A DNA stretch of 32,000 bases from Candidatus Harpocratesius repetitus (GTDB lineage Archaea; Asgardarchaeota; Lokiarchaeia; Sigyniarchaeales; Promethearchaeaceae), in contig JAIZWK010000001.1 of the NCBI GenBank assembly GCA_021498095.1, positions 90,001 to 122,000 on the forward strand, written 5' to 3'. Below the pieces are notes generated by a model that searched no databases, was not told the DNA's origin, and worked only from the letters and a program-made list of their open reading frames with translations. Of the stretch, positions 26,960-31,065 are shown one piece after another (positions within the stretch are counted from its first letter, which is position 1; the number at the start of each line of letters is the position of its first letter). Position numbers and translations under genes: made by a program.

Positions 26960-27114
26960 ATTATCGAATAAAATGAATTTAATGAAATGAGAAAAAAATA
27001 TTTAATAACGAAGTAGATTATCAAAACGGAGAAATTTCTTGAAAAAGAATTTGATTGGAACTGATTGGCCGAGAAAATTGCTGCAACTCATAAAAAAAAA
27101 GCCATGAAGCATAT

Positions 27115-27194
27115 CAGTTCAGTTAAGTTTAGTTCAGTTCAGTTAAGTTCAGTTCAGTTAAGTTCAATTAAGTTCAATTCAATTCAATTCAATT
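27115..27194. repeat. Pentanucleotide tandem repeat, 16 units (CAGTT/AAGTT/TAGTT/CAATT)
   Basis: Read directly: units start as CAGTT/AAGTT and change to CAATT toward the right end. Confidence 0.95.
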
Positions 27195-27400
27195 CAAATT
27201 TGGAATTTTTCAACTTCTTAATTTATGTTGCTAATTCAAACTTGGTTTTCATTTAACCAATACATATCTCACCTTGTATCTTTTGGAAAAATTCACCTGG
27301 TATTACGCCAATTTGGTGTTCACAGCTCAAAACGCCGCACAACTTCTAATAGAGTATCTTACCAGCGCCTTGGGAGATTATATCATATGATTTATTTACC

Positions 27401-27529
27401 TTCTTTATATTATAGAAATAATATATTTATATTTTTATATATTCTATAATAATATATGTCTTCAAAAACTACGGTGGCAATTGATAAAGCGTTACGAAAA
27501 AAATTGAAAAAAATTGCTCTTTTCTTAGA
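27401..27529 (+). repeat. Long direct repeat, copy 1 (matches 30238-30366)
   Basis: Offset 2837 bp; 2 mismatches in 129 bp (27404/30241 and 27412/30249), identical from 27413 to 27529. Confidence 0.95.
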
Positions 27530-27551: not shown

Positions 27552-27673
27552 AACTAACAACAAAAAGTTATGATGAAAAAAAATTATATAAAAAATTATT
27601 GAAGACTCCTAATTATTAAGTGATTAATTGTAATAGATTAATTAGGTTATGAAATTAACTAGATGATTAAAAT

Positions 27674-28969
27674 ATGGTGATATCAGATAAAGTTAATATT
27701 ATAAATTATCTTGAAAACTTTAAACTAAATAAATTCAATAATGGAGATTCTAAAAAAAAGGGGAAAAAGACAGGTTTAGATATTTATATCAAAGAAAAAG
27801 GGGAAACCATTATTGAAAAATTTGAATATCAAGGCATGTATTTCATGAAATTTATTAATGAATTTTGGACTTCGAAACAAAGACAAAGTTCATCCTTACA
27901 TGAAATTTCATATCGAGCTTGTTATAAAGCTCAATTACCAAGATTTTTTATTGAAATTATGACAAAAAAAGGAGATTATGTATATGATCCATTCGCCGGA
28001 AGAGGAACAACAGGTATTGAGGCCGCTTTGATGGGGAGAAATATAATTTTAAATGATATTAATCCCTTAAGTAAAATTTTATCAAAACCACGTCTAAATA
28101 TACCAACTCATGATGAAATTGAGAAAAGACTTGATTCAATTAAGATGGATTATAATCTAAAAGCAGAAATTGATATTTCAATGTTTTATCATCCAAAAAC
28201 TGAATCAGAAATTGTTTCATTAAAAAAATATTTGAATGAAAAAAAACTAAATGGTGAAGAAGACTTTATAGATGAATGGATAAGAATGGTAGCCACAAAT
28301 AGGTTAACTGGTCATTCTAAAGGATTTTTTTCTGTATATACTTTACCTCCTAATCAAGCAGTTTTACCTGAAAGACAATTAATAATAAATAAAAAAAGGA
28401 ATCAAACACCAGAATATAAGGAAATAAAACCTAGAATTATAAAGAAATCAAAATCATTACTCAGGAATCTCTCAAAACAAGAAAGGAATAATTTGAAATC
28501 AGCTGCAAACAAAGCGATATTTTTAACTTTAGATGCACAGAAAACGAAAAATATTCCAGATAATTTTGTTCAATTAACAGTTACTTCTCCTCCTTTCTTA
28601 AATGTAGTTCAATATTCAGATGATAATTGGTTAAGATGTTGGTTTAACTCTTTAGATGTTAATGAAATTTCAAAAAAAATAACTATAGAAAATAATATAA
28701 ATGAATGGACAAGAATAATGACAAATGTTTTCAAAGAATTATATCGCATAACCAAAGTAGATGGTTTTGTAGCATTTGAAGTTGGTGAAATAAGAAACGG
28801 AAAAATAAATTTGGATGAATATATCCTCCCAATTGGTTTAAAAGTAGGGTTTAATTGTATAGGTATCTTAATTAATTCCCAAAATTTCACGAAAACGTCA
28901 AATATTTGGGGAATAAAAAATAATAAAAAAGGCACAAATTCTAATCGTATAGTTATATTCCAAAAATGA
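27674..28969 (+). CDS. Amino-methyltransferase, probably N4-cytosine type (motif I before motif IV)
   Basis: YDPFAGRGTT (motif I) precedes VTSPPF (motif IV; SPPY/F is typical of m4C enzymes); SYRACYKAQLPRFFI at the N-terminus. Confidence 0.88.
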   Translation: MVISDKVNIINYLENFKLNKFNNGDSKKKGKKTGLDIYIKEKGETIIEKFEYQGMYFMKFINEFWTSKQRQSSSLHEISYRACYKAQLPRFFIEIMTKKGDYVYDPFAGRGTTGIEAALMGRNIILNDINPLSKILSKPRLNIPTHDEIEKRLDSIKMDYNLKAEIDISMFYHPKTESEIVSLKKYLNEKKLNGEEDFIDEWIRMVATNRLTGHSKGFFSVYTLPPNQAVLPERQLIINKKRNQTPEYKEIKPRIIKKSKSLLRNLSKQERNNLKSAANKAIFLTLDAQKTKNIPDNFVQLTVTSPPFLNVVQYSDDNWLRCWFNSLDVNEISKKITIENNINEWTRIMTNVFKELYRITKVDGFVAFEVGEIRNGKINLDEYILPIGLKVGFNCIGILINSQNFTKTSNIWGIKNNKKGTNSNRIVIFQK

Positions 28970-28973
28970 ATCT

Positions 28974-29672
28974 ATGGAGTTTGTTAATAATATGGACGAA
29001 AAAGACAAATATATCAAAGAATTAGAAGATTTACTAACAGAAATGATGAAACCTATTAAGAATGTACCATTTAATTTAGTCATAAAAGGATTTTCTGGTC
29101 ATGATGTTATTTTATTCGACATGAATAATTCTAAAGATAGAGAACTTCTAGACTTATTAATAGAAGGGGCGCAAGATGCATTAAATAATGCATATAGCCA
29201 AGGAATTAAAGTAAAAAGAACGAATGAAGTTGGAAATTATATTGAAGAATATGTTTTGAATTCTTTAAATAAAGTAGGTTTACACGCTTCAAGGCCAAAA
29301 ACAAAGAGAGGTACTCATAAAGCGGGTGGATATCCAGATATTTTTATTTTAGATAAATATAAAAGACCTACATATCTTGAAATAAAATCCTACAATATTA
29401 AAAATTACCAGACTACCCAAAGGTCGTTCTATTTATCCCCATCCACAGAAAAAGATGGATTTAAAGTAATTCATGATGCTAGACACCTTATTTTAAGTTT
29501 TCAAATTGAGAAAAAAAAAATTGAAGATAAAGAAATTACATTTATTCCTGTTCATTGGACGATTTTTGATACAAAATACCTTAAAGGACAAATTAAACAT
29601 GAATTTAACGCATCTAATAAACAAATGTATTTAAATGAAGCGATTCTTGCAAAAGGTTCTATTGAAAAATAA
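28974..29672 (+). CDS. Type II restriction endonuclease, PD-(D/E)xK fold
   Basis: NEVGNYIEEY helix, GYPDIF and YLEIKS catalytic motifs; starts 4 bp after the MTase stop. Confidence 0.8.
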   Translation: MEFVNNMDEKDKYIKELEDLLTEMMKPIKNVPFNLVIKGFSGHDVILFDMNNSKDRELLDLLIEGAQDALNNAYSQGIKVKRTNEVGNYIEEYVLNSLNKVGLHASRPKTKRGTHKAGGYPDIFILDKYKRPTYLEIKSYNIKNYQTTQRSFYLSPSTEKDGFKVIHDARHLILSFQIEKKKIEDKEITFIPVHWTIFDTKYLKGQIKHEFNASNKQMYLNEAILAKGSIEK

Positions 29673-29811
29673 GGATTAGATTCAAAGAGAAATATAGAAA
29701 AAAAAGGAAAACAGAATTTTTGTAGAAATATTTAGCGAGAAGGACACTTAAGATTTTTAGAATGGGAGATATTCAAGAGCTAATTAATGTATGCAATAAA
29801 TTATACCAAGT

Positions 29812-29923
29812 TTTTCAATTATCTCTTTGATAATTTCAAGCTTGCAGGCAATCTATAGTTATACATAACTAAGATTGGCCATTTATATTTCAATTATCTC
29901 TTTGATAGTTTCAAGCTTGCAGG
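29812..29923 (-). repeat. Two 37-bp CRISPR-like direct repeats separated by a 38-bp self-complementary segment
   Basis: Minus strand repeats CCTGCAAGCTTGAAA[C/T]TATCAAAGAGATAATTGAAA[T/A] at 29923-29887 and 29848-29812; period 75 bp; identity extends 4 bp further after one mismatch. No third copy found. Confidence 0.85.
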
Positions 29924-30237
29924 GAATCAGTTCTACTTCTACCATTCGATATGCAATTTGATATATAGCTTTTTAAAGATGAACGAAATTTGATATTCAA
30001 GCAGAAGAGAGCAAATGGTAGTTAAGACAGCAAAATCAAAAGAATAACATAATCCATAAAAATATCGTCCCAACAATTCATTGTGGCAGAAATTTTAGGT
30101 TTATGGCAAAAATTACAAAACCTTTAGAAAAATTCTAATACAAATTCCAAGCCAAATTATACTCTACGTATCGGAATGCTAATATCACGTAGAAACCTTT
30201 TTCTGGTAGAGAGCACCACCTACATGAATTGATCGCT

Positions 30238-30366
30238 TTCCTTATATTGTAGAAATAATATATTTATATTTTTATATATTCTATAATAATATATGTCTTC
30301 AAAAACTACGGTGGCAATTGATAAAGCGTTACGAAAAAAATTGAAAAAAATTGCTCTTTTCTTAGA
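30238..30366 (+). repeat. Long direct repeat, copy 2 (matches 27401-27529)
   Basis: Covers the promoter region and first 24 codons of the intact antitoxin gene. Confidence 0.95.
30251..30270 (+). promoter_or_regulatory. Putative archaeal BRE/TATA promoter for a leaderless vapBC transcript
   Basis: Purine-rich AGAAATAA followed by TTTATATT at -30 to -23 relative to ATG 30293; duplicated at 27414-27433. The AT-rich context lowers specificity. Confidence 0.45.
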
Positions 30367-30625
30367 CCTCACCCAAAATGAGGTAATTGAAAAGGCGTTA
30401 TCCTTATTAGAACAAAATATCATCACACAAATCAAAGAATCTTCGAATAAAGCAGCCCTAAATAGTTCTAATGATCCTATTAAAAATACATTAGATATAA
30501 TTAGTCAGAAAGTCTGTGAAATTGATAGCAACCATAAAAAAATTCAAGAAATTTTATACAGTGGTCCAGAAACCATCGATGACATTATAACCTCAAATTG
30601 GAATACAGGGCTGGGTATAGAATGA
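30293..30625 (+). CDS. vapB: RHH/CopG-type antitoxin
   Basis: KTTVAIDKALRKKLKKIA...TQNEVIEKAL beta-alpha-alpha pattern; stop overlaps the PIN gene start (ATGA). Confidence 0.8.
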   Translation: MSSKTTVAIDKALRKKLKKIALFLDLTQNEVIEKALSLLEQNIITQIKESSNKAALNSSNDPIKNTLDIISQKVCEIDSNHKKIQEILYSGPETIDDIITSNWNTGLGIE

Positions 30626-31065
30626 AAAAGCAGAATATTATAGCTCTCGATTCCAATGTTTTCCGAAATCGGCAGTTTATTGATTATTTAATTTTCCACA
30701 AAGATCGATTGAATATCGGTCTTCCCATAATTGTGCAGGTGGAAGTTGCATATTTTTATAAAATTAAAGGATTTTCTTGGGAAATTTTTAAAAAAGAAAT
30801 GAAAAAGTTTGATGCGGTATTTATGGACTGGAAGATCGCAAATGTCGATGAAATTATCACCCGGATCTTTAACAACAAGCAGAATTTGTCATTCAAACAC
30901 CATTTTCGAGACTATCTGATTGGGTTGCAAAGCGAAAAAGCAAATCGGAACCTTATCACATACAATACATCACATTTTAATTGGTTGAACAAGGTTGAGG
31001 TTAAAACCCCTGAAGATTTCGTAAAGGATCTTGAAAAAATTATAAAGAATGCAAAAACCAATTAA
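30622..31065 (+). CDS. vapC: PIN-domain ribonuclease toxin
   Basis: IIALDSNVF, VQVEV, FRDYLIG, LITYNTSHF; ATG 30622 overlaps the antitoxin TGA. Confidence 0.88.
   Translation: MKKQNIIALDSNVFRNRQFIDYLIFHKDRLNIGLPIIVQVEVAYFYKIKGFSWEIFKKEMKKFDAVFMDWKIANVDEIITRIFNNKQNLSFKHHFRDYLIGLQSEKANRNLITYNTSHFNWLNKVEVKTPEDFVKDLEKIIKNAKTN

Follow-up and report, generated by a model that had tools for sequence, protein, structure and literature searches.

A CRISPR repeat pair enclosing a single spacer in the genome of Candidatus Harpocratesius repetitus is best explained, in our judgement, as a satellite mini-array with a truncated leader that belongs to the CRISPR-Cas system of the host and could still yield one crRNA but not grow. 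That it derives from the host system as described here is almost certain. That it is still expressed and processed is only slightly more likely than not. Mini-arrays of this type are known from earlier surveys of composite CRISPR loci in archaea, and the present one is a further archaeal example.

The stretch of DNA analysed, called the window hereafter, is 32,000 nt long and corresponds to positions 90,001–122,000 of a genome that consists of a single 4.36-Mb contig of 31% G+C and has an archaeal 16S signature. A preliminary description of the window had reported two 37-nt repeats on the minus strand, a gap of 38 nt between them and a palindrome in this gap, all of which are as described; its proposal of a CRISPR repeat-spacer-repeat with the geometry of a Cas6 substrate on the minus strand was likewise borne out. 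It had also regarded the element as an orphan. This is not the case: the repeat occurs 212 more times in three arrays situated 5–55 kb downstream on the same strand, and the cas genes lie 2 kb past the edge of the window. The features are listed in Table 1.

Table 1. Positions of the mini-array, its neighbours in the window and the parts of the host CRISPR-Cas locus
Feature	Position	Strand	Remarks
Left copy of 129-bp direct repeat	window 27401–27529	+	98.4% identical to 30238–30366
N6/N4 DNA methyltransferase gene	window 27674–28969	+	PF01555, E 3e-20
Type II restriction endonuclease gene, MjaV family	window 28974–29672	+	PF27324 in 76/76 homologues
Far (terminal) repeat, degenerate	window 29812–29848	-	35/37 versus array 4 consensus
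Single spacer, 38 nt	window 29849–29886	-	holds imperfect 29-nt palindrome
Promoter-side CRISPR repeat, 37 nt	window 29887–29923	-	37/37, equals consensus of 152-repeat array (genome 163,384–174,745)
Junction between repeat and leader fragment, 31 nt	window 29924–29954	-	no homology to any host leader
CRISPR leader fragment (distal module)	window 29955–30150	-	distal module also upstream of arrays 3 and 4
A-run + TATATAT box, possible archaeal BRE/TATA	window 29961–29977	-	candidate promoter
Right copy of 129-bp direct repeat	window 30238–30366	+	holds upstream region and start of ORF 30293
Mini-array	genome 119,812–119,923		2 repeats
Csx1/TM1812-Csx20 fusion (csx1/csx20)	genome 122,868–124,904		
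Array 2 (degenerate)	genome 124,949–125,437		7 repeats
cmr1–cmr6 with inserted CARF protein	genome 126,088–133,634		
Array 3	genome 133,706–137,630		53 repeats
Type I-B cas3, cas5, two cas7	genome ~142.5–150.5 kb		
Large HD-bearing protein + type III-D RAMPs	genome ~151–160 kb		
cas4	genome 162,639–163,325		
Array 4	genome 163,384–174,745		152 repeats
cas1, cas2 fusion, second cas4, Cas6-like ORF	past array 4		
Cas6-like ORF	genome 188,625–189,620		TIGR01877 E 7e-13, 49.4 bits, below curated cut-off

Repeats, polarity and the host CRISPR-Cas locus

The two copies are direct repeats with a start-to-start distance of 75 nt, and as a pair they are far beyond chance. They are repeats of the host's own class 1 array: against the consensus of the 152-repeat array (array 4), one copy is identical at 37/37 positions and the other at 35/37, so the repeat does have its like among CRISPR repeats, the absence of which the preliminary description had named as an outcome against its reading. 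Both copies carry, on the minus strand, the hairpin TATC-AAAGA-GATA followed by 8 nt, which read ATTGAAAT in the promoter-side copy and ATTGAAAA in the far copy. An 8-nt 5' handle of the ATTGAAAT kind is usual in Cas6-processed type I-B and type III repeats. The far repeat differs from the consensus by C16T and T37A (in crRNA sense); its hairpin is kept, and the stem is even lengthened to 7 bp by C16T.

Column conservation over the 205 copies of the two large host arrays gives a repeat unit of 37 nt, with flanks that are not conserved. The identity beyond 37 bp noticed in the preliminary description amounts to four bases (AATC) following one mismatch, and is read as chance, since in the large arrays conservation stops at the borders of the 37-nt unit. 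The 38-nt spacer has the modal length of the host (126 of 210 spacers, within a range of 36–40 nt). An Rfam scan of window 29600–30400 found neither the CRISPR-DR family nor any other RNA family; a sub-threshold match to the rpsL sRNA (E 0.92) was dismissed.

A search of the whole genome with the 27-nt core of the repeat, allowing up to five substitutions, returned 214 copies, in four clusters only and all on the plus strand, while the reversed control pattern gave 0 matches. The direction of these clusters can be read from three features. The repeat ends in ATTGAAAT on the minus strand only; a conserved flank is present in arrays 3 and 4 at the high-coordinate ends only; and degenerate repeats are found at the low-coordinate ends, the terminal repeat having 8 changes in array 2, 1 in array 4 and 2 in the mini-array. 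Therefore the crRNA sense is the minus strand, and the mini-array has its perfect repeat on the promoter side and its altered repeat at the terminal end, as in an array of normal polarity. Altered terminal repeats such as this one are frequent.

The four same-strand clusters span genome positions 119.8–174.7 kb, with cas genes between them. The host arrays alternate with cas genes of types III-B, I-B and III-D, with cas1/cas2/cas4 and with a Cas6-like gene. Nearest to the mini-array is csx1/csx20, at 2.9 kb, followed by the degenerate array at 5 kb and cmr1–6 at 6 kb; the mini-array is thus the outermost piece of a composite III-B / I-B / III-D locus of about 75 kb. The preliminary description had named the lack of a host cas6 as an outcome that would weigh against the element. 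A Cas6-like gene is present, with a score (49–51 bits) that lies below the curated cut-off of TIGR01877 (58.65).

Among the other arrays, array 2 directly adjoins the csx1/csx20 gene, upstream of cmr1, and in its leader the GTGTAGG motif known from arrays 3 and 4 survives only as a weak trace. Six of the 210 spacers are present twice (arrays 3 and 4), which points to internal duplications within or between these two arrays.

Outside this genome, the exact repeat was found in none of the species representatives, and neither repeat nor mini-array was found in 40 relatives, many of them incomplete MAGs, where the assembly of arrays is often unsuccessful.

A leader fragment beside a restriction-modification pair

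When window 27600–30700 was compared with the genome by BLAST, the sequence upstream of the promoter-side repeat proved to be 79% identical to genome 137,853–138,048, a segment located 220–420 nt past the first repeat of array 3. A three-way alignment of this distal leader module (about 197 columns) gave identities of 78% between the mini-array and array 3, 52% between the mini-array and array 4, and 53% between arrays 3 and 4. The module, which lies at genome 137,853–138,048, at about genome 174,960–175,155 and at window 29955–30150, includes a TTGGAATTTGTATTAGAATT block that is almost invariant in all three. In the mini-array, homology to the leaders has its limits at 29953–29955 and at 30150.

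In arrays 3 and 4 the distal module is followed by a proximal leader of about 210 nt, which holds a shared block, AAATTT(A/T)TAA...ATATTAATTA(T/G)TGTAGGTGTTT. The A-run/T-run part of this block resembles boxes upstream of the tRNA genes of this genome, and on account of that likeness we infer that the block is the normal array promoter. The mini-array is without the proximal leader, the AAATTT(A/T)TAA box included, and so does not have a complete leader. The only promoter candidate left to it, and presumed to be active, is the A-run with a TATATAT box, the core of which ends 37 nt before the first repeat. The box is conserved next to array 3 and, less completely, next to array 4, and bears a loose likeness to the A-run/T-run boxes upstream of host tRNA genes. 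In arrays 3 and 4 it is flanked by a conserved inverted repeat (CGTTCA...TGAACG), where a regulator of the transcription of the arrays may have its operator; the mini-array keeps the left arm only.

On the other side of the mini-array lie the genes of a methylase and of a type II restriction endonuclease; the latter is context, outside the CRISPR element. Several homologues of the endonuclease are named as such, and the MjaV-family homologues are spread over Bacteroidales, Patescibacteria, Nanoarchaeota and Heimdallarchaeota. An N6/N4 methylase is always adjacent to them, in either orientation; their PF27324 is a recently defined family. The two 129-bp direct repeats bracket a unit of 2.8 kb made of the methylase, the endonuclease ORF, the mini-array and the leader fragment. 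Among the ORFs of at least 40 aa listed in the bracketed segment and searched against Pfam there was no integrase, transposase or replication gene, and the only Pfam assignment was methylase, for the first large ORF. Close to the direct repeat, on its left side, a short ORF contains a microsatellite, (TCAGT)x16.6 at window 27114–27196.

This bracketing had suggested, in the preliminary description, that the element is carried by a mobile restriction-modification unit. The closest methylase-endonuclease pair, on a 3.9-kb contig (L029), shares 73% nucleotide identity over window 27694–29630 only. Past the endonuclease gene this contig has nothing in common with the window, and contains neither the mini-array, nor a repeat-like sequence, nor the flanking repeats; the mini-array, for its part, brings along a piece of host-array leader. 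Since the nearest homologous pair is without it, the mini-array is unlikely to be cargo of a mobile restriction-modification unit, and since only the pair is shared, the bracketed segment is a mosaic of a horizontally moving restriction-modification pair and a piece of the host CRISPR locus.

The right copy of the direct repeat covers the first 25–26 codons of the small gene at 30293, which are thereby duplicated in the left copy. This gene is the first of a pair (30293–31065), located between the mini-array and the cas genes and conserved in another genus. Its product has a weak ribbon-helix-helix match (Pfam E 0.03), and the product of the second gene, called PIN-like here, has no family match; the pair is a possible toxin-antitoxin system. 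No empty site was found in the relatives: three of them (L018–L020) hold the RHH/PIN-like pair but share nothing with the left flank.

The following course of events would account for the arrangement. The mini-array probably arose when the leader end of one large array was copied; this satellite kept 196 nt of distal leader, an intact repeat, a 38-nt spacer and a slightly degenerate terminal repeat, and lost the proximal leader of about 210 nt. A rearrangement in the defence island would then have brought it to the outer margin of the locus, next to an MjaV-type restriction-modification pair acquired in a separate event. Transcription, if any, would start from the A-run/TATATAT box 37 nt upstream and give a short minus-strand transcript, which the host's Cas6-like enzyme would cut 8 nt before the end of each repeat. 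The expected product is one ordinary crRNA, with a ATTGAAAT handle, the 38-nt spacer and a 3' repeat remnant, which could be loaded by Cascade, Cmr or III-D complexes and directed against an invader absent from the collections searched. Without the proximal leader no spacer acquisition would be expected, and from this the presence of a single spacer would follow. Polarity shared with the large arrays, the modal spacer length, the leader homology, the same-strand repeat identity, the cas genes around and between the arrays, the small number of changes in the two repeats and the lack of the element beside the nearest methylase-endonuclease homologue were counted in favour of this reading. Counted against it were the sub-threshold score of the Cas6-like gene, the loss of the promoter-like motif together with the proximal leader, and the published view of mini-arrays near type III loci as mostly degraded.

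The spacer, the state of the repeats and alternative readings

The spacer palindrome, 29 nt long and imperfect, forms a hairpin of 13 bp that contains one bulge. By folding energy the spacer stands 17th among the 210 of the host, and a fold at least as good is reached by 2.7% of 38-mers drawn at random from the genome. A special role for the palindrome was therefore rejected, 16 host spacers folding better, and so was the idea that a type III complex recognises its own transcript through it: inspected by hand, ungapped pairing is confined to the two 6-nt ends because of the one-base bulge. The protein-binding or recombination site envisaged in the preliminary description also finds no support, as the palindrome is unique in the genome and no stronger than many ordinary spacers.

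No second copy or meaningful partial match of the spacer was found in the genome with blastn-short. The best matches are at chance level, with 13 exact nt or 15–16 of 16–17 nt (BLAST E 1.4–5.3). One of these, 15/16 nt at the seed end of the spacer, falls in an element present at genome positions of about 378,900, 789,480, 1,059,040 and 3,133,020; it was judged to be chance (BLAST E 5.3), its four copies counting as one event. The copies of this element, at least four, are near-identical, and it seems to open with an ATG and codons for a hydrophobic peptide. A scan of genome 110–196 kb for sites with at least 10 of the first 12 nt, or at least 24/38, returned only the spacer itself and scattered 10–11/12 matches without extension. 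In six promoter regions, including those of the restriction-modification, RHH/PIN, membrane-protein, csx1 and cmr genes, the longest exact runs were 6–8 nt, which is taken as the chance level for AT-rich DNA.

Searches for a protospacer elsewhere gave zero hits in viral contigs (full spacer and its two halves), in metagenome contigs (two 20-mers), in genome contigs (one 20-mer) and in 399 other genomes of the phylum (full spacer, up to 3 mismatches). When all 210 host spacers were compared with the genome in order to infer a PAM, only partial matches of 17–21 nt were obtained, and no full protospacer.

The two repeats of the mini-array carry 2 changes in 74 nt, versus a divergence of 21–22% in the adjoining leader fragment; under equal neutral decay of repeats and leader fragment such a difference has a probability of about 2e-5. 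For comparison, array 2, at 5 kb, has 1–8 changes per repeat. The repeats of the mini-array are therefore either constrained, or a large array has renewed them through a recent recombination; their good state could stem from a recent copy or gene conversion instead of selection. Both changes of the far repeat would be harmless to the single crRNA, because T37A lies past the point where Cas6 is expected to cut, and the effect of C16T is a longer hairpin.

The main rival to a satellite mini-array is a silent relic, that is, a dead fragment of a rearrangement of the CRISPR locus, untranscribed or unprocessed and devoid of function. This is possible, but in our view less likely than not. The promoter-like motif of arrays 3 and 4 sits in the deleted, proximal part of the leader, a point counted against expression, and the failure to find the target in the genome, in viral, metagenome and genome contigs or in the 399 genomes of the phylum is in line with a relic, as are the absence of the mini-array from all relatives searched and the clear decay of array 2 nearby. 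Mini-arrays beside type III loci have been viewed as probably degraded repeats (Shmakov et al. 2023, 'Widespread CRISPR repeat-like RNA regulatory elements in CRISPR-Cas systems', PMC10120712). A relic fits less well with a promoter-side repeat that is perfect and a far one with only two changes, although the adjoining leader is about 21% diverged, and with an A-run/TATATAT box that still stands in place; nor would either change in the far repeat harm the one crRNA.

A second alternative is a regulatory RNA resembling a crRNA, as in CreA or in the 'cargo regulation' mini-arrays of Shmakov et al.: guided by it through partial pairing, Cascade would occupy a promoter and silence, without cleavage, either a cas gene or the neighbouring RHH/PIN-like pair. 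The layout would suit such a role, with an intact upstream repeat, a degraded downstream repeat, a truncated leader and a place at the edge of a composite locus including type I-B, and with a possible toxin-antitoxin pair between the mini-array and the cas genes, an arrangement found enriched in PMC10120712. For the spacer, however, no site of partial pairing that includes the seed was found, either within the locus or outside it, and the regulatory guide or decoy of the preliminary description is not upheld. Over genome 110–196 kb no match is anchored in the seed, the best having 10–11 of the first 12 nt and no extension; promoters of the neighbours share only short exact runs; and the best partial match genome-wide, 15/16 nt, has a BLAST E of 5.3. 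The identity of the RHH/PIN pair is itself weak (Pfam E 0.03 and none), and positional conservation was not seen among the relatives searched, many of them incomplete MAGs. We consider regulation of this kind improbable.

About equally improbable is a selected module with a fixed guide, in which the truncated leader would ensure constant, adaptation-proof expression of one crRNA, either guarding against an unsequenced invader or tying the RHH/PIN-like or restriction-modification cargo to the presence of Cas (through convergent transcription in the case of restriction-modification). If a single guide tied to cargo in this way were real, it would be an Asgard counterpart of CreTA or cargo regulation, with target rules beyond detection here.

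Still less credible is a weapon or decoy carried as cargo of the 2.8-kb unit, acting through host Cas proteins against a competing element or as a Cas6/effector sponge (RNA anti-CRISPR): the direct repeats do bracket the mini-array together with a horizontally mobile restriction-modification pair, and mini-arrays of viruses and plasmids with host-like repeats and leaders are known (PMC6858448), but the L029 contig shares only 27694–29630 and no repeat-like sequence, the bracketed segment has no mobility gene, orientation and leader module are those of the chromosomal arrays, and the spacer has no match in viral contigs or other genomes.

Known mini-arrays and the place of the present one

Mini-arrays in or beside class 1 loci were surveyed by Shmakov et al. 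(PMC10120712). They consist of two repeats, the upstream one intact and the downstream one degraded, with a spacer of 20–60 bp and no acquisition part of the leader, and were reported for about 15% of the CRISPR-cas loci of archaea, a share that rises to about 37% among composite archaeal loci including type I-B. Regulation was proposed where a partial target anchored in the seed sits in a nearby promoter, and toxin-antitoxin genes were found enriched between mini-arrays and cas genes. Beside type III loci, no targets or conservation were seen, and the mini-arrays were judged mostly degraded and non-functional.

The element described here resembles these mini-arrays in its two repeats and single spacer of normal length, in an upstream repeat that is (nearly) the array repeat and a downstream one that is degraded, in the missing acquisition part of the leader, in its place at the edge of a composite locus containing type I-B, and in the possible toxin-antitoxin pair between it and the cas genes. 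It departs from the regulatory cases, for the searches found neither a partial target combining seed and PAM nor, among the relatives covered, a conserved position. In contrast to the surveyed mini-arrays it retains a recognisable piece of distal leader, 196 nt long.

Two other systems call for comparison. CreA, of the CreTA pair in haloarchaeal type I-B systems, is likewise a repeat-spacer-repeat built of variants of the host repeat, and is processed by Cas6. However, CreA adjoins creT and its spacer pairs with the creT promoter, whereas no such match was found here, and CreA has divergent repeats, unlike the perfect upstream copy of the present case. The virus-borne mini-CRISPR arrays of SPV1 and SPV2 (Medvedeva et al. 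2019, PMC6858448) have a host-like repeat and leader and target relatives of these viruses. With these and with the solitary-repeat RNA anti-CRISPRs, the present mini-array has in common one or two spacers, repeats identical to those of the host, a host-like piece of leader and no cas genes of its own. Those arrays, in contrast, reside on viruses or plasmids and target close relatives, while the present one sits in the chromosome, shares the orientation of the host arrays and has no detectable target; also unlike mobile mini-arrays, it is absent from the closest copy of the adjoining restriction-modification pair (L029).

What had seemed an orphan in a mobile restriction-modification cassette is thus the outermost, leader-truncated piece of a Lokiarchaeial CRISPR-Cas region. 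It shows a possible route by which mini-arrays are born, namely a copy of the leader end of an array followed by deletion of the proximal leader. If the organism can be cultivated, the mini-array would provide a simple natural test of the expression and processing of an Asgard array from a 37-nt leader stub.
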